Positions 1 through 39,237 of a stretch of DNA of 64,000 nt are shown piece after piece (the stretch's first letter is position 1; the number at the start of each line of letters is the position of its first letter). The notes under the pieces were generated by a model. That model made no database searches. It was not told the DNA's origin and saw only the letters and a list, made by a program, of their open reading frames with translations. The position numbers and the translations under genes were made by a program. The stretch spans positions 3,067 to 67,066 of the IMG/VR virus record IMGVR_UViG_3300033066_000493. One strand, given 5' to 3'. This stretch comes from a virus (taxonomy: Duplodnaviria > Caudoviricetes).

Positions 1-1648
1 TTGCAGTTTCATCTCTAAGAATTGAATCATCTGGACTTTTTTGCGGAATTGATACTACTATACCATTTGGATTACCAAACTCCTCTTCTACTAAGTCTGG
101 TAAATTTAACATCAAATATTGAGCAATTGGTTCATTTTTATTATATCTTAATCTTCTAATATAAAATTTACCAAATCTCGCATGTATACCAGAAGATGTA
201 CCTAATGCTGTAGAAGTTGTACCTTCTGGTTTAATTGTTGTTATTCTGCTTGCTGGATTAACACCTATCAATTTAGCAGTTTCTTCATTTACTTGTGTGA
301 TATATTGTGTTATAGATTTCCAATCAAAATTTTTGTAATTTTTATTATCGCCTATACCTGTTAATGATACACCAAGTAATGCATCCTTTTCTGTATTATC
401 TTTCCATTTTGTCGAAAGATAATGAAAATCTGTATAACCTGTTTGTAATGTTCCTATAAATGTAGCAGCCCAAGCTCGTTCTTTAAAATCTTCATCATCA
501 ACAATAGTTGAAAAGTTAATGGATGTTAGATTACAAAACTGTCTGGATTTTAAACTTATTTCTAAGCATGGATTACCACATATATCAATATTATTTGTCC
601 AGAAGAAGCCTGGTTCTCCAGAACCAGAATTTTTAACTATTGTCCATAAATCATCAAATTCTTCTTTTGTAACATTTTTTCTTAAAAGTACAACTGAATT
701 GTTTGATCTTGCTCTTTGTGGTTCAAACCAGTACCAAGGTAAAGATTTCGATTCTACAAAAGTATCGAATTGTTTTTGTTGTAATGAAATGTAATGTGCT
801 TTATTTTTATAAAGAACTTCACCTTCCCAAACTTTAGTTTTTTCATTAAAATGGAAACCTCCATTCAAAACATCAACTTTAAAATTACCTTTACAATTCA
901 ACATTTCTGTATCATCTTTATCAAAAAATGAAATTAATGCTGCACGTCTAATACCACCTGATAAAACTGCATCAGCAATTAAGCATATTATATCATGTAC
1001 TTCTAATGTTGTTAATTTAGAACCATCTTCTTTTTGATCTAAAATTGATTTTATTTTATTTAAACAACGTTCTAATGGTTCAGGTCCTGGGGCTTTACCA
1101 CCAGCTGTAATTAATTGAGACCCTTTTGCTCTAATATCAGAATAATCAAACAATGGTAAGTATCCATTATTCATATAAGCTTTAAATAAAGCTCTAACTG
1201 AATCAGCCCACCCTTCAATCGAATCACCAATTAAAAATTTCTTTGTTTTCTTTGGTGTATTAATTGCTGGTAATTTATTTATGTGTGCTGTTTGTACAGA
1301 GAAACCAACACCAGAGCCACCTAACAATAATAACATTACTTCTGAAAAATCTTTCCATGTCTGTATTGCTGTAAATGCACAATTAAAAATTCTAGAATTA
1401 TTAAGTTCAATAGGTTTACCTGCAAATTGCATAGAACGCATTGAAGGTACAACTTTTTTATCTTTTACAAATTTAAATGCTTTTTTAATATCATTTTTTA
1501 ATAAAGGATATTTTTTAATATGCATTTGTTCTACTCTATAACATATTTCTTCCCAAGTTTCACGTCTTTTTACATCCGGTATAAATTTTGAATATTTACT
1601 AAATATAGTCAATTTACTTAATACATTAGATGACAAATCATTACTCAT
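1..1648 (-). CDS. nrdJ: Class II (adenosylcobalamin-dependent) ribonucleotide reductase; 3' end runs off the window
   Basis: Absent from the ORF track (no stop in window). Manual translation from ATG at 1648: MSNDLSS...RRETWEEI...PSMRSMQFAG...FNCAF...LLGGSGVGFSVQ...GGIRRAALIS...GEPGF...GNPCLEISL...QFCNL...LLGVSLTG...TTIKPEGTTS, typical monomeric NrdJ motifs including NPCxE. Confidence 0.92.
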   Translation of the reverse strand, partial: MSNDLSSNVLSKLTIFSKYSKFIPDVKRRETWEEICYRVEQMHIKKYPLLKNDIKKAFKFVKDKKVVPSMRSMQFAGKPIELNNSRIFNCAFTAIQTWKDFSEVMLLLLGGSGVGFSVQTAHINKLPAINTPKKTKKFLIGDSIEGWADSVRALFKAYMNNGYLPLFDYSDIRAKGSQLITAGGKAPGPEPLERCLNKIKSILDQKEDGSKLTTLEVHDIICLIADAVLSGGIRRAALISFFDKDDTEMLNCKGNFKVDVLNGGFHFNEKTKVWEGEVLYKNKAHYISLQQKQFDTFVESKSLPWYWFEPQRARSNNSVVLLRKNVTKEEFDDLWTIVKNSGSGEPGFFWTNNIDICGNPCLEISLKSRQFCNLTSINFSTIVDDEDFKERAWAATFIGTLQTGYTDFHYLSTKWKDNTEKDALLGVSLTGIGDNKNYKNFDWKSITQYITQVNEETAKLIGVNPASRITTIKPEGTTSTALGTSSGIHARFGKFYIRRLRYNKNEPIAQYLMLNLPDLVEEEFGNPNGIVVSIPQKSPDDSILRDETA

Positions 1649-34605: not shown

Positions 34606-35916
34606 ATGAAATACATAAAAGAATATAATAATTTTGAAGAATTAGATTTTTTAAATGAAGAGCAAAAATTAAATGTTGTTTGGAGAGATGCCATAGGCGA
34701 TCATTTTATGAATTATATAAGTAAAACATCGAATAATGTTATACATGGTGTTACACAAATAACTGATGATTATCTTAGAAAATCTTATGAAATTTTTCTA
34801 AAAAACAATAAAAAAGTTAGTGGTGATACAGATTTAAATTCGATAAAAAAAGATGCAGAGGATCACGCATCTGATGCTGTTAAAAACATCAAAGATGAAG
34901 ATAAAAAAAATGAAAGATACAAAAAGGAGTATGATAAGTATATAAAGGATAGGAAAAAAGAGCAAGAAGAAGGTGATACTATATCATTTGAAGAATTCAA
35001 GGAAACTGTAAATGATAGATTAAAACAAGAAAAAATATTAGAAGTTAGGAAAAAATTAAGTACGTTATTATTAGCTATAAGTATAGGATTAATAATTATA
35101 GGTGGTATAGGTGGGGCTATAATGTCACTAAGAGCAGTTATAGTGGCTCATGAAAAAAGGAAAAACAAGAAAAAAACAGGTAGTGATAAATTATCAGAAA
35201 AACAAGAGGATACTCTTTATAAGATTCTTGTAATATCAAAAGTTATGGTTGTTATTGGTGGTATAGGTGGAGCACTACGTTCATTTAAATTTTTAATAAA
35301 AACAAAGCAAGATTATACAGGATTTGAAGATGATCATGGATTTATGGGTGATATAGATTCTAGAAATGAATCCGTGGATTACAAAAAATTAGGCGAAAAC
35401 ACATATAATCTTATTAAAAATTCTAAAACATTTAATTCAATATTAAATAAATTAGGGGTAATAAAAGGTTTAAATAGTATTATGCAATCAGCAACAGAAT
35501 ATGCTTCAGGATTAGAAGAAGATATAATTATAAATGTTGCAAAAATGAATATGTTTTTTGATAGATATTTGACAAAATCAGAACAAAAAGAAATAATGAA
35601 ATTAAGTGGGTATGCTATTTCAATCATACATGAAAAAGAAATTTATAATAATTTTTATACATTAAATGAAGCTAGTGATAAAGATATTGAAAATATGTAT
35701 AATATGGCTATAAATTTAATTGGTCAAAATAAAATTGATAGTATTGTAGAAAAGGTGTGGGATAAAAATGTAGAGAATGGTTTAAAAGAATTGGAAAAAA
35801 TAAAAGATAACAATAAAGCTGCAATTAAAATTGCAGAAATAAAGAAAACTATCGATATGAAATTAGATTTTCACGAAAAACAAGAATTAATTAAACTTGG
35901 CGAAAAACTACTTTAG
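34606..35916 (+). CDS. Probable virion protein with two Gly-rich hydrophobic helices
   Basis: MKYIKEYNNFEE leader; LLLAISIGLIIIGGIGGAIM and ILVISKVMVVIGGIGGAL. Confidence 0.7.
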   Translation: MKYIKEYNNFEELDFLNEEQKLNVVWRDAIGDHFMNYISKTSNNVIHGVTQITDDYLRKSYEIFLKNNKKVSGDTDLNSIKKDAEDHASDAVKNIKDEDKKNERYKKEYDKYIKDRKKEQEEGDTISFEEFKETVNDRLKQEKILEVRKKLSTLLLAISIGLIIIGGIGGAIMSLRAVIVAHEKRKNKKKTGSDKLSEKQEDTLYKILVISKVMVVIGGIGGALRSFKFLIKTKQDYTGFEDDHGFMGDIDSRNESVDYKKLGENTYNLIKNSKTFNSILNKLGVIKGLNSIMQSATEYASGLEEDIIINVAKMNMFFDRYLTKSEQKEIMKLSGYAISIIHEKEIYNNFYTLNEASDKDIENMYNMAINLIGQNKIDSIVEKVWDKNVENGLKELEKIKDNNKAAIKIAEIKKTIDMKLDFHEKQELIKLGEKLL

Positions 35917-36876
35917 TCTTTCGCCGAAAGTTTTTTTAATTTTTTTATAAGGAAAACCTTGAGTTTTATATATCTCTTCTCTTTCGTAAGAGTGTTTTAA
36001 TGAATAATTTTGAAAACCTTTAAATGAAAAATCATCTACAAAATCTATAATATTTACAACTTCTTTACCTTCAAACAATCTCATACCTCTACCAATACTT
36101 TGAAGTATTATCTTTTCTGATTTGAAACTTTCTGTAAAGAAAATATAACTTAAATTATTTATAGAAATACCAGTAGAGAATGTACCAAATGATGCTACCA
36201 TTATCTTGATAGTTTTAGTATTTCTATCCATTTGAGTTATGTAATGTTTTCTTAAATCTTGTTTAGTATCACCATCAACATAATAAATTTCATAATTTGC
36301 TGGTAAAACATGCTTTAATGCATCACATATTTGTTTACCGTAACCATCTTGTACATTGTGGAATAATACTAATGAATTATTTTGTACTTTTGATATAACA
36401 TCTACAATAAAATTTAATCTATCTTTATTGTCTACAATCAATTTTTTTTCTAAGGCTAACATAGTTGAACCATCGAATTCAACTCTTTTTGCTTTTAGTT
36501 TTAAAATATCATTTCTTTTATCATATGGTAAATAATCCATCATTATCTGACGAATATAAACTGGTGTAGCATACTGTTTATTTTCTTCATTATTACCAAA
36601 TAAAAACTTAGCACTAACTTTATTAACACATGGTCCTATTAATGATAGTAATGTGTAAGCATCAGCATCATCTTTATCTATACCTATAGTACCACTAAGA
36701 CCAAACCTAATATCGGCATTTTTACATTTAGAAAGAACCTTTTTAACAGATGTTGTTTTTGCTGTATGACAATTAGATACACATAAATCATTAGCAAAAT
36801 AGTTATGATTATCTTCTATTCTTAAATTATAAACATCTTCTTTATAATCTATTTTAGTTATTTTCTTTATTTTCAT
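35908..36876 (-). CDS. uvsW: UvsW-like SF2 helicase, C-terminal part preceded by split-intein C fragment
   Basis: IntC ...NHNYFANDLCVSN then CHTAK, FGLSGT (motif III), GTFSTGISI, QSIGRGMR (motif VI). Confidence 0.88.
   Translation of the reverse strand: MKIKKITKIDYKEDVYNLRIEDNHNYFANDLCVSNCHTAKTTSVKKVLSKCKNADIRFGLSGTIGIDKDDADAYTLLSLIGPCVNKVSAKFLFGNNEENKQYATPVYIRQIMMDYLPYDKRNDILKLKAKRVEFDGSTMLALEKKLIVDNKDRLNFIVDVISKVQNNSLVLFHNVQDGYGKQICDALKHVLPANYEIYYVDGDTKQDLRKHYITQMDRNTKTIKIMVASFGTFSTGISINNLSYIFFTESFKSEKIILQSIGRGMRLFEGKEVVNIIDFVDDFSFKGFQNYSLKHSYEREEIYKTQGFPYKKIKKTFGERLK
36772..36876 (-). mobile_element. Split intein C fragment (35 aa)
   Basis: MKIKKITKIDYKEDVYNLRIEDNHNYFANDLCVSN; terminal Asn followed by +1 Cys (36769-36771). 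Confidence 0.92.
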
Positions 36877-37708
36877 ATTTTAAAAATTGTTTTAAATTTT
36901 TATTCATTTTTTCAAAATCCGGATTATTAATTAAAATATTCTCATCATAATTTTTAAAAAACCAATCATCACTAATAACATTATAATCGTATCCATTAAT
37001 TAATGACCATTCATTCGCATACTTTTCTTTTATTATATTTTTTTCATTGGAAAACCTTGAACTATTTGGTTTAATTTCATATAATATTTTATTATTTAAA
37101 TCTACAAAATCTACAATATAATTATGTAAATTATTTTTATAAATATAAGGTATTCTTATTTTTTCATATAAAAATGTTGGATTTTTTAATTGAAAAAAGG
37201 CTTCCCATGTCGATCTATATACACATATTTTACCATTTAAAAATATTTTTGTTCTACTTTTAGCCCATGAATTTGTAACACAAGGAGTAAAACTACCTTC
37301 TGCTATTAATTTTTTCATTTTTATTGAATTTTTAATTTTCATATTATTTTTTGTAATATCTGTCATTTTATGACAATAATTATTATCTCCCATTCTTGAT
37401 ATTGATAATAATTTATTATTACAAGGTTTAGAACATGTTACCCTATATGATCTTTTATATTGATTATATTCTAATTTTTTAGAACATATTGGACATAATG
37501 GATTTTCACTTATATCATTAAAATAATTAAATATGGATTGTTCAGTTATTAAATCAATTGGTATTAAATCTCTAATATTATTTATTATTAACCATTTTTC
37601 TAATTTAGATTCATGATCTTTTACTTTTAATTGACCATAAAATTTTTTATTTTCTATTATAAAATTATATAAGTCTTTTTTATCCATTTTACTATAATCT
37701 ATATACAT
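36854..37708 (-). CDS. Free-standing endonuclease (PD-(D/E)xK/TnsA-like) with Zn-binding motif, between the intein halves
   Basis: CPIC...CSKPC; YRSTWE...YEKIRIPY...YIVDFVD...YEIKP. Confidence 0.75.
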   Translation of the reverse strand: MYIDYSKMDKKDLYNFIIENKKFYGQLKVKDHESKLEKWLIINNIRDLIPIDLITEQSIFNYFNDISENPLCPICSKKLEYNQYKRSYRVTCSKPCNNKLLSISRMGDNNYCHKMTDITKNNMKIKNSIKMKKLIAEGSFTPCVTNSWAKSRTKIFLNGKICVYRSTWEAFFQLKNPTFLYEKIRIPYIYKNNLHNYIVDFVDLNNKILYEIKPNSSRFSNEKNIIKEKYANEWSLINGYDYNVISDDWFFKNYDENILINNPDFEKMNKNLKQFLKYENKENN

Positions 37709-37735
37709 ACAGGTAGCTTTTATTTTTATGTGCCT

Positions 37736-38731
37736 CTATATATTTATTATATTATCATTTTCATTCAAATCTTCAACTTTTTTCCATAATCCATTATTCA
37801 ATAAAACTTTATGATTTCCTGTTATTTTTACAGTTGTGCCATTTTCCATTTCTAATTCATACATTTGAACATTTTTATTTAAATTTTTATAAACATATTC
37901 AACCTTTTTATGTTCAATTTGATTGGTAGTTTCATTATATGTTAATACTATATCATTAATTTTAATATCATTAATTTTTTTATAAGTATTATCAGACATT
38001 TTTATATTTGTATCTGGATGTAGGCATTCATCTACTGTAACAACATTAAATTCTGTAAAGAATTCATCTGGTAATTCTCTCAAAGTTTGGAATGTACCTA
38101 TAACAACATCTACATCTTTTTTCTCTTTACTTGCACCATCACCTATAGGTTGCATTTTAAAATTTATCAGTTGTTTATATTTTGAATATTCCTCAAAATC
38201 ACTTATACCTTGTATAACTAAAGAGTTATTAGGCACAATGATTAACATTCTATTTAGCTTACCATGAGTTTTTAAATAAGCGAACACCATGAAGACGATA
38301 AGAGTCTTTCCTGCACTTGTAGCAAGTTCATTAGAAGACCAACCATACTTTAATATGTTCATAGCAGTATTAATCTGATAATCGTAAGGTTTTTTATCAG
38401 ATTTTTCAAAAAAATTCTCTTGCCATTTTACAAACTCTTTACTATCAAAATCCTCATCTATTATAGCATTTAATCCAAAAATATCACATTCAAAATTATA
38501 TTTTTCACACATATTCATGACTTCTTGCCATAAACCAATAGGAATTTTATTGTTTTTAAAATATGATACTTTACCAGTCCATCCCCATTGTTTTAATTTT
38601 GGATTCTTTTTTAATAAGATCCAATAATTTCTAACCATTTTTGTAAATGTTATTTCTATTTGTCGTAGTTCTAATTCATCTGCTTCAATAAGTTTTAAAT
38701 ATTTTTTATCGGATGTTACTTCGAATTTCAT
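37736..38731 (-). CDS. uvsW: UvsW-like SF2 helicase, N-terminal part ending in split-intein N fragment
   Basis: PYDYQ (Q motif), ATSAGKT (Walker A), IIVPNNSL, TFQTL, VTVDE then CLHPDT. Confidence 0.9.
   Translation of the reverse strand: MKFEVTSDKKYLKLIEADELELRQIEITFTKMVRNYWILLKKNPKLKQWGWTGKVSYFKNNKIPIGLWQEVMNMCEKYNFECDIFGLNAIIDEDFDSKEFVKWQENFFEKSDKKPYDYQINTAMNILKYGWSSNELATSAGKTLIVFMVFAYLKTHGKLNRMLIIVPNNSLVIQGISDFEEYSKYKQLINFKMQPIGDGASKEKKDVDVVIGTFQTLRELPDEFFTEFNVVTVDECLHPDTNIKMSDNTYKKINDIKINDIVLTYNETTNQIEHKKVEYVYKNLNKNVQMYELEMENGTTVKITGNHKVLLNNGLWKKVEDLNENDNIINI
37739..38026 (-). mobile_element. Split intein N fragment (96 aa)
   Basis: CLHPDTNIKM (block A)...KITGNHKVL (block B TxxH)...WKKVEDL. 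Confidence 0.92.
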
Positions 38732-38745
38732 ATATTCTTTTATTT

Positions 38746-39237
38746 TTATAATAATTCATCAAACTTTATTTTATTTTTTATTTGGTAAATTAAATGATCT
38801 AATGATTTCAAAGTTTCATTTAGAAATTTAATATGATTAACCAATAAATTATAAAACTGTTCAGTTTCGGCAACTAATCCATCTATTTGTAGATAAATTG
38901 CCTGATATGATTTAAATTTGCCAACATTATCATCATAACACTGTTTTTTTTCTTGTTTTAATTGTCTTAAAGTTTTTTCAACATGGTCTTGTATTGCAAA
39001 TGTTTCTTCTATTAATCTTTGTCTATCTGATATTATTTTAGTATTTGATATTTGTTTTAAATCTTTAAATGATTCATCATGTTCAATTATTATTTCTGTC
39101 CATTTATTACGCATAGTAGCTAAGGATTTCTTTAATCTAGAAACCTTTGCACTATCTTTTTTATCAAAAAGATTGACATTAAAAGATTTCCCTAACTCTT
39201 CCTGTATTTCCACATCTTCGAGATCTGAATTTTTCAT
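38746..39237 (-). CDS. UvsY-like recombination mediator (tentative)
   Basis: Helical, ends FLNETLKSLDHLIYQIKNKIKF resembling the UvsY C-terminus; adjacent to uvsW as in T4. Confidence 0.45.
   Translation of the reverse strand: MKNSDLEDVEIQEELGKSFNVNLFDKKDSAKVSRLKKSLATMRNKWTEIIIEHDESFKDLKQISNTKIISDRQRLIEETFAIQDHVEKTLRQLKQEKKQCYDDNVGKFKSYQAIYLQIDGLVAETEQFYNLLVNHIKFLNETLKSLDHLIYQIKNKIKFDELL

Follow-up and report, generated by a model that had tools for sequence, protein, structure and literature searches.

A UvsW-type helicase gene of a large uncultured phage is fractured in its DECH box by a probably functional split intein, with a TnsA-like nuclease gene between the halves

How could a phage obtain an intact helicase from a gene that is broken inside its ATPase motif? 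The question arises from a 64,000-nt stretch of viral DNA (hereafter the window) in which the UvsW-type repair helicase of a large uncultured phage is encoded as two genes, with intein halves at the end of the first and the start of the second and a nuclease gene between them. All three ORFs are on the minus strand: an N-part (38731..37736; 331 aa, stop TAG), the nuclease (37708..36854; 284 aa, stop TAA), and a C-part (36876..35908; 322 aa, stop TAG). The locus has the features that define a fractured gene, namely two co-oriented ORFs of one enzyme, an intein half on each, and an endonuclease ORF between them. It is probably a functional one, with a split intein in motif II of a UvsW-like helicase and a putative homing endonuclease separating the halves.

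The first-pass annotation placed a split intein at DE|CH of a UvsW-like helicase, and the ORFs, Pfam, and alignment to T4 UvsW all support that placement. The 235-aa N-extein (38027..38731, minus strand), from a UvsW-like SF2 helicase, contains motifs I (TSAGKT) and Ia and breaks off after the VDE of motif II; the 287-aa C-extein (35911..36771, minus strand) opens with the Cys+1-His of motif II (CHTAK) and continues through motif III (LSGT), motif V, and motif VI (QSIGRGMR). Pfam detected ResIII on the N-part (4.7e-12) and Helicase_C on the C-part (6.9e-9), and the helicase matches phrog_16 ("DNA helicase"), though the UvsW N-terminal domain PF21241 scored 19.6 bits versus a cut-off of 25.3. 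Residues 41-238 of the N-part match chain residues 37-235 of T4 UvsW (PDB 1rif/2oca; E 1.7e-19 to 3.4e-19), the alignment running to ...NDEC-H at chain residue 235, while C-part residues 34-310 match 2oca chain residues 232-495 (E 1.7e-20), beginning at DECHLATGKS (chain residue 232). The two parts together span T4 UvsW chain residues 37-495 and SF2 motifs I-VI, as expected of a UvsW family member, and from these alignments it follows that the exteins meet exactly in motif II (DE|CH). A terminator-like hairpin (35899..35925, minus strand) extends across the C-part stop codon (35908-35910) and is common to a convergent plus-strand gene (34606..35916).

The intein halves appear complete. IntN (37739..38026, minus strand) follows ...VVTVDE on the N-part and runs from CLHPDT, supplying Cys1, through block B (T69-G-N-H72) to NIINI, while IntC (36772..36876, minus strand) runs from MKIKK to NHNYFANDLCVSN with block F (NHNY), block G (...CVSN), and a terminal Asn35, directly followed by CHTAK. 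The initial reading of a 96-aa IntN with C1 and TxxH and a 35-aa IntC ending in VSN before Cys+1 was therefore accurate. The Pfam Intein_splicing model covered N-part residues 244-329 at 37.7 bits (cut-off 35.8); its C-terminal end covered C-part residues 2-35 at 25.7 bits, below the cut-off because IntC is only 35 aa long. C1, T69, N71, and H72 of IntN are invariant in 45/45 distinct relatives, as are N23, H24, N25, Y26, and N35 of IntC in 43/43. Most of the family also has the penultimate Ser34 (..VSN; 39/43 distinct relatives), and the junction ..N|CH, i.e., Cys+1, occurs in every locus. Among solved inteins, the IntN profile matched the DnaB mini-intein 1mi8 (1.1e-9) ahead of NrdJ-1 (2.1e-7), DnaE (4.8e-4), and gp41-1 (5.9e-3). 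IntN is closed by a stop codon and IntC opens with a separate ATG; the break falls between blocks B and F, and the break point lies at the corresponding place in contiguous intein homologues. Judged by its sequence, the window intein is a naturally split class-1 (HINT) intein with all splicing residues, and it would be expected to splice in trans.

Alternatively, the intein halves might only dock the two helicase halves non-covalently, with no peptide bond formed. Split phage enzymes can function without ligation, as is reported for the intein-free split NrdA of phage Aeh1 (PMC3045599). However, C1, TxxH, the block F His, the terminal Asn, and Cys+1 are all present in the window and invariant in 43-45 distinct relatives, a mark of purifying selection on a splicing chemistry that mere docking would not need. 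Furthermore, with the break inside the DECH box, an unligated insert of 96 aa plus 35 aa would occupy the ATPase site. We consider docking improbable and favor trans-splicing.

The ORF between the halves had been read as a PD-(D/E)xK-type nuclease, an assignment now backed by a TnsA-like fold and invariant catalytic residues. The 284-aa free-standing protein (36854..37708, minus strand) comprises an N-terminal helical region, a Cys4 zinc ribbon (C72, C75, C92, and C96), and a TnsA-like PD-(D/E)xK domain, and it matches phrog_15427 ("endonuclease") at 7.6e-32. Its predicted structure (pLDDT 92) best matched TnsA (1t0f_A; Z 9.2, 138 residues aligned, rmsd 3.9; next hit 6.4), and Foldseek paired the model with TnsA 1f1z at probability 1.0 (E 0.013). 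None of the residues E182, D200, D203, E211, and K213 varies across 38 homologues, the window protein included. Pfam returned no PF08722 (TnsA-like_N) match at E <= 0.1 for the window nuclease, only weak matches to Tox-REase-9 and Phage_endo_I; its relatives score 31-35 bits for PF08722 (cut-off 26.5), and many homologues have a precomputed PF08722 match. The predicted model thus assigns the nuclease a restriction-endonuclease fold closest to that of TnsA. We also considered a Vsr-like homing endonuclease such as I-Bth0305I, with the composite EDxHD motif and its catalytic His (PMC3239194), and rejected it: the 38-sequence alignment contains no invariant or near-invariant His, Pfam found no Vsr match in the window nuclease, and the model scored only Z 6.1 against Vsr and Z 5.7 against I-Bth0305I. 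The nuclease is presumably a homing endonuclease.

This interpretation is consistent with the distribution of the cassette. A search of genomes for the same insertion site, proposed in the first-pass annotation, recovered the cassette in uvsW of Salmonella phage S16, Proteus phage PM2, Prevotella Lak-B megaphages, and >40 distinct IMG/VR loci. The five-part layout (N-extein, IntN, nuclease, IntC, C-extein) was found again in 55 loci, which include 45 distinct intein sequences, placing the split-intein arrangement well past chance; S16 (gp114 / gp114.1 / gp115), Lak-B4, and 52 further IMG/VR loci have a matching layout at the matching site. The split-intein UvsW has its own PHROG families (16259 and 9690), and UvsW is not the only host of this intein and nuclease cassette, which interrupts XPD-like and PhoH-like ATPases as well, at VDE|C. 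The impression that a UvsW host is unfamiliar holds for the literature searched but not for sequence databases, where such hosts are common (S16, STP4-a, PM2, Lak-B, and dozens of IMG/VR loci). Relatives include intein-less uvsW alleles (T4, LR756500), contiguous mini-intein alleles (P0162, P0171, P0201, P0269, P0193), and single-ORF fusions of N-part and nuclease (P0143, P0177). The natural series is complete, from empty site through contiguous mini-intein and fractured gene to IntN-nuclease fusion, and is in keeping with the gene-breaking model of how split inteins arose. Lak-B4 carries the cassette and Lak-B5 an intact intein-less gene, with flanks 98.6% and 99.2% identical; 1717 nt in Lak-B4 replace 63 nt of Lak-B5, and diverged tracts reach ~10 nt upstream and ~53 nt downstream of the insertion point. 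Given the near-identical flanks, this presence/absence polymorphism reads as a homing signature, observed in Lak-B relatives rather than in the window phage's own lineage.

The stop codon that ends the N-part raises another possibility. This TAG (37736..37738, minus strand) and the nuclease ATG nine codons downstream lie in one frame, and if the TAG were decoded, by a suppressor tRNA or as Gln, the N-extein, IntN, and nuclease would form one protein, with IntC and the C-extein separate. TAG is rare as a stop in the window (3/62 minus-strand ORFs), TAG=Q occurs in Lak relatives, and the single-ORF fusions noted above show that the combined protein exists elsewhere. Against this, reading TAG as Gln lengthens total ORFs by only ~3% where coding is already dense under code 11, no tRNA was found on the 67-kb contig, and TAG also terminates the C-part at the natural end of the helicase, just ahead of the terminator-like hairpin. 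Among homologous loci, N-parts stop with TAA, TGA, or TAG, most with TAA or TGA, and Lak-B4, itself a TAG=Q phage, uses TGA. The three frame relationships between N-part stop and nuclease start occur 18, 15, and 12 times, so that the in-frame layout (18/45 versus 15 expected) is not enriched. Decoding of the TAG is accordingly very unlikely, and we retain the reading of three separate proteins. At the other nuclease junction, the last 23 nt of the nuclease gene (..KYENKENN*) are shared with the beginning of IntC (36854..36876, minus strand), with the IntC ATG within TATGAAAAT, a junction also present in Lak-B4. Overlap of the nuclease 3' end by the IntC start is seen in 41/45 loci, and since IntC and the C-extein begin within the nuclease stop region, their translation is likely coupled to that of the nuclease. 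Upstream of the N-part ATG by 5 nt lies the 13-mer ATAAAAATAAAAG (38737..38749, minus strand), whose only other exact copy in the window (37717-37729) is 8 nt upstream of the nuclease ATG; with one mismatch allowed, the window contains eight matches versus 4.4 expected, which is not significant.

The sequence itself appears sound. Sequencing runs of nine studies contain the stretch, and Logan contigs from an independent activated-sludge run cover 35835-38800 without indels but with unbridged gaps at 36862-36902 and 37754-37802, which answers the earlier concern about misassembly only in part. That the stops reflect assembly error, or a helicase pseudogene broken by a selfish element, is hardly credible even for a metagenome assembly of a contig ~24% complete (CheckV) with both junctions unbridged by independent contigs: the architecture is identical in cultured-phage genomes and >40 distinct metagenomic loci, all motifs of the helicase, blocks of the intein, and catalytic residues of the nuclease are intact, the independent contigs lack indels, and another contig (P0001) encodes a nuclease of equal length (284 aa) and 98% identity.

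A fractured gene of this kind could work as follows. The homing-endonuclease gene would sit within a class-1 mini-intein, in the loop where endonucleases canonically insert, and the mini-intein would in turn interrupt the DECH box (motif II / Walker B) between its Glu and its Cys. With the endonuclease gene inside the intein of the helicase, one minus-strand unit would yield three proteins: N-extein plus IntN, the nuclease, and IntC plus C-extein. IntN and IntC would then associate and splice in trans through an N-S acyl shift at Cys1, transesterification to Cys+1, and cyclisation of Asn35, joining ...VDE to CHTAK... and so restoring the native DECH box in a helicase of 522 aa. In co-infections, the nuclease would presumably cut uvsW alleles that lack the intein, close to the codons for VDE|CH, and recombinational repair would copy the whole IntN-nuclease-IntC cassette into the cut allele.

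Taken alone, the window locus is ordinary: it adds one member to a large family with representatives in cultured phages, and its kind is already known (the fractured genes of Dassa et al. 2009). The family itself is large, sequence-diverse, and apparently undescribed: in the literature searched, we found no description of a UvsW split intein or of a TnsA-like nuclease family in fractured genes. Its nuclease points to a homing endonuclease aimed at Walker-B codons of several phage ATPases. We find the case evenly balanced for a broader proposal, that the cassette is a third, undescribed homing-endonuclease lineage of fractured genes, TnsA-like with a zinc ribbon, which has spread among unrelated phage P-loop NTPases (UvsW-like, XPD/DinG-like, and PhoH-like) by way of their Walker-B "(I/V)VDE|C" sites, and whose nuclease family breaks TerL as well, at YIDE|C, where the intein is atypically split. 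In that case, dozens of naturally occurring "..SN" split inteins with Cys1 and Cys+1, divergent from one another and only remote relatives of DnaE, gp41-1, and NrdJ-1, would be available as possible new orthogonal ligation tools. The fastest split inteins used in engineering (gp41-1, NrdJ-1) come from fractured genes, and with intact class-1 chemistry and a native Cys+1 in the DECH box, this family could give further orthogonal trans-splicing pairs. The window intein is a plausible candidate for a new orthogonal split intein given its weak IntN profile match to gp41-1 and DnaE, but it has dozens of close relatives.

The nuclease shares its restriction-endonuclease fold with TnsA, the nuclease subunit of the Tn7 transposase (PDB 1f1z/1t0f), but it is not a transposase subunit, it is missing the C-terminal domain of TnsA, and the helical and zinc-ribbon region at its N-terminus is its own. 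Compared with the EDxHD homing endonuclease I-Bth0305I (PDB 3r3p), it lacks the conserved His and is structurally more remote, although like the Vsr-like endonucleases of the Dassa fractured genes it is located between intein halves. The early comparison with metagenomic fractured genes (gp41, NrdJ, IMPDH) was apt. Those genes (gp41-1..8, NrdJ-1, IMPDH-1, NrdA-2, DnaE, ligase, and terminase; PMC2677866) resemble the window in their phage origin, in having a host 5' half with IntN, a free-standing endonuclease ORF, and IntC with the 3' half on one strand, in the position of the intein break at the canonical endonuclease-insertion region, and in overlapping endonuclease and IntC coding frames. 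The window differs in its host, since a UvsW-like SF2 helicase (motif II) is absent from the eight listed (PMC2677866), and in its endonuclease, which is TnsA-like with a Cys4 zinc ribbon and neither GIY-YIG nor Vsr-like/EDxHD. Closer counterparts are the homologous cassettes at DE|CH, with a nuclease of the window nuclease's family, in S16 (NC_020416), STP4-a, PM2, and Prevotella Lak-B2/4/7/8, which are 46-53% identical to the window in IntN and 46-58% in IntC but only 28-34% in the exteins, and whose ORFs are annotated only as "DNA helicase", "hypothetical protein", or "UvsW". The penultimate IntC residue is His in S16 (..AHN) and Ser in the window, whose ..SN terminus matches that of the Npu DnaE IntC, which ends in ..ASN. 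Npu/Ssp DnaE, gp41-1, and NrdJ-1 are the workhorse split inteins of protein engineering; by the IntN profile values given above their sequence relationship to the window intein is distant, yet they share with it class-1 chemistry with Cys1 and Cys+1, a split between blocks B and F, and halves of similar size (96 + 35 aa in the window).

The uvsW-like helicase gene in the window is a genuine fractured gene, and its first reading as such was correct. Its two pieces and a nuclease gene lie on the minus strand: the N-part ORF (38731..37736; 331 aa, stop TAG), the nuclease ORF (37708..36854; 284 aa, stop TAA) and the C-part ORF (36876..35908; 322 aa, stop TAG). The N-part reads ...FNVVTVDE, followed by a 96-aa IntN (CLHPDT...KITGNHKV...NIINI), and Pfam assigns to it ResIII, Intein_splicing (37.7 bits, above the cut-off) and Hint domains. 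The C-part begins with the 35-aa IntC MKIKKITKIDYKEDVYNLRIEDNHNYFANDLCVSN followed by CHTAK, and in the Pfam search its residues 2-35 match the C-terminal end of Intein_splicing, with Helicase_C thereafter. Alignment of T4 UvsW structures to the N-part runs up to ...NDEC-H (chain residue 235), while alignment to the C-part starts at DECHLATGKS (chain residue 232) and continues as far as residue 495; since one alignment ends and the other begins within DECH, the break lies exactly between the Glu and Cys of motif II. The +1 Cys of the C-part is the native cysteine of the DECH motif. The first-pass annotation, which had placed a split intein at DE/CH of a UvsW helicase, was right to the residue, including its 96-aa IntN with C1 and a TxxH motif (Cys1; Thr69 and His72 of block B) and the 35-aa IntC that precedes CHTAK in the C-part ORF.

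Equivalent intein segments were aligned from 55 loci (45 distinct sequences). Across these related loci, Cys1 and block B residues Thr69, Asn71 and His72 of IntN are invariant, as are Asn23-His24-Asn25-Tyr26 of block F and the terminal Asn35 of IntC, and Cys-His directly follows IntC in every locus. The penultimate Ser (..VSN) is the norm of this intein family (39/43). The window intein is catalytically complete and is a bona fide HINT domain of class 1, whose split falls at the canonical endonuclease-insertion region. Alternatively, the two halves might serve merely as a docking clasp that holds the helicase pieces together. We infer real trans-splicing, because such strong conservation of the splicing chemistry argues for it over a clasp.

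The intervening ORF matches the PHROG family phrog_15427 ("endonuclease"; 7.6e-32) and has at least 175 metagenomic homologues, many with a match to PF08722 (TnsA-like N-terminal nuclease), a level that the window's own copy did not reach in the Pfam search. Ten residues are invariant in an alignment of 38 nuclease sequences (C72, C75, C92, C96, W168, E182, D200, D203, E211 and K213), and the window's copy retains every one. Its AlphaFold model is confident (pLDDT 92), and TnsA is the best match by both Foldseek (probability 1.0) and VIA-align (Z 9.2 over 138 residues); the VIA-align runners-up, Vsr (6.1) and I-Bth0305I (5.7), score well below. From the invariant residues, the model and the structural match, the product is a TnsA-type PD-(D/E)xK nuclease whose N-terminal region is helical and bears a zinc ribbon, in agreement with the PD-(D/E)xK-like nuclease proposed from the sequence at the outset. 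An EDxHD/Vsr-like assignment was ruled out, as the 38-sequence alignment contains no conserved histidine and TnsA fits the structure clearly better. A LAGLIDADG assignment, from an I-CreI profile match on YIVDFVD, is noise (E = 1).

The source record is a linear 67-kb IMG/VR virus contig, 64 kb of which make up the window, with about 24% G+C and about 24% completeness (CheckV). A T4-like replication module surrounds the locus, which is adjoined by genes for a primase and a gp32-like SSB, and a family-B polymerase gene is located elsewhere on the contig. Near-identical sequence occurs in sequencing runs of nine studies, among them metagenomes of wastewater, activated sludge, fresh water and rivers. 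The assembly was checked with Logan contigs from four runs, three of which gave only short fragments, their long records having been filtered out. The fourth, an independent run, tiles the region without indels, leaving 36862-36902 and 37754-37802 uncovered and the two ORF junctions unbridged; the contig joints, whose sides measure 22-25 nt, resemble unrelated contigs. The Logan contigs thus neither prove nor disprove the junctions. Because contigs of that one independent run tile the region yet leave both junctions unbridged, we consider assembly error excluded by the comparative evidence, not by reads.

The gene arrangement also bears on expression. The IntC ATG sits 23 nt within the 3' end of the nuclease gene, in TATGAAAAT, and this junction is identical in the Prevotella megaphage Lak-B4. 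Such an overlap, typically ATGA, is present in 41 of 45 loci, which suggests translational coupling of the nuclease and the C-part. A terminator-like hairpin (35899-35925) spans the C-part stop and is shared with a convergent gene at 34606-35916. This gene (436 aa), the sole long plus-strand gene nearby, overlaps the C-part at its final 9 nt and has no PHROG match. An exact 13-mer, ATAAAAATAAAAG, occurs on the minus strand just upstream of the N-part ATG (38737-38749) and of the nuclease ATG (37717-37729), with no third copy in the window. It could be an initiation or promoter element common to the two genes, or a chance repeat in AT-rich DNA, and is statistically unconvincing; a sigma-70 promoter scan returned fewer matches than shuffled sequences did.

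Read-through of the N-part TAG into the nuclease was considered because the nuclease ATG lies in frame with it and Lak relatives use TAG as a glutamine codon. TAG stops are also rare in the window: of 62 long minus-strand ORFs, 3 end in TAG, and two of these belong to the fractured helicase. Several observations disfavor this explanation: coding is dense under code 11, with a gain of only about 3% under TAG=Q; no tRNA genes were found on the 67-kb contig; homologous loci mostly have TAA or TGA at this position, Lak-B4, itself a TAG=Q phage, having TGA; and the N-part/nuclease frame classes across loci (18/15/12) show no enrichment of the in-frame class. We therefore rejected recoding or read-through as the main reading and retain that of separate ORFs.

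The first-pass annotation had proposed searching genomes for the same insertion site, and it is indeed found elsewhere. Fractured uvsW genes are present in Salmonella phage S16 (annotated simply as DNA helicase gp114, hypothetical gp114.1 and UvsW gp115), in STP4-a and relatives, in Proteus phage PM2, in Prevotella megaphages Lak-B2/4/7/8 and in dozens of IMG/VR contigs. PHROG families already exist for both halves (phrog_16259 and phrog_9690). Among 1.84 billion cluster representatives, IntN had 210 matches at E <= 1e-10, most of them proteins about 320-350 aa long that carry IntN C-terminally. Scanning viral contigs with the single nuclease sequence recovered one locus only; an alignment-based scan was needed for the rest.

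Other host genes carry related cassettes (IntN, nuclease gene and IntC). In nine IMG/VR loci (L014, L015, L021, L028-L030, L043, L063 and L072), a homologous split intein and a nuclease of the window nuclease's family interrupt an XPD/DinG-like helicase (Cys-rich N-part, Helicase_C_2 and HBB) at ..IVDE|CH..; compared with the window's halves, identity reaches 70% for IntN and 86% for IntC. XPD-hosted inteins fall within the UvsW-hosted ones in the intein tree, with two inferred label changes, a count with which a single origin would still be compatible. In Campylobacter phage CPt10 (L084; NC_027996 57667-60642), a PhoH-like ATPase is split at ..VIVDE|CQN: the N-part reads ..VIVDE|CLHED..TGNHK.. 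and is followed by a 373-aa nuclease of the window nuclease's family and then by IntC (..LSKN|CQN). This gene, annotated as a disrupted pseudogene, is actually a fractured gene. The T4-type terminase large subunit of Salmonella phage SG1 (L083; NC_054936 39544-42396) is split at ..IYIDE|C, and the 199-aa nuclease between its halves again belongs to this family; here the intein is split atypically, its N-piece measuring about 35 aa and its C-piece, which ends ..SHN|CAFIPNF, about 107 aa.

Intein-less uvsW alleles are the rule (e.g., T4 and LR756500). Some UvsW alleles carry a contiguous mini-intein and no nuclease (P0162, P0171, P0201, P0269 and P0193), and in others N-extein, IntN and nuclease are fused into one ORF (P0143 and P0177); together with the intein-less alleles, these forms make up a full evolutionary series. 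Lak-B4 (L001) and Lak-B5 (L087) share 98.6% identity on one side of the insertion site and 99.2% on the other, and Lak-B5 uvsW is intact and intein-less (..CICDE|CHHAGG..). Instead of 63 nt, Lak-B4 has 1717 nt, made up of the cassette and of extein sequence that has diverged over about 10 nt upstream and about 53 nt downstream of the insertion point. This polymorphism with changed flanks, seen in the Lak-B relatives rather than in the window's phage, is the footprint that would be expected of endonuclease-driven homing with co-conversion.

Interest in the fractured uvsW is moderate and rests mostly on the large, apparently undescribed cassette family that it represents. Literature searches found no description of an intein in UvsW or of the split uvsW of S16, which is weak evidence since most subscription journals lay outside their scope, and none, with incomplete coverage, of fractured genes that contain a homing endonuclease of the TnsA-like type. 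Fractured genes have been described for gp41, IMPDH, DnaE, NrdA, NrdJ, ligase and terminase (Dassa et al., 2009; PMC2677866). The endonucleases known from them are GIY-YIG or Vsr-like/EDxHD enzymes, whereas the window nuclease belongs to neither family. The IntN-half profile matches solved inteins (DnaB mini-intein, 1.1e-9; NrdJ-1, 2.1e-7; DnaE, 4.8e-4; gp41-1, 5.9e-3) at E-values that indicate only a distant relationship to the engineered split inteins.
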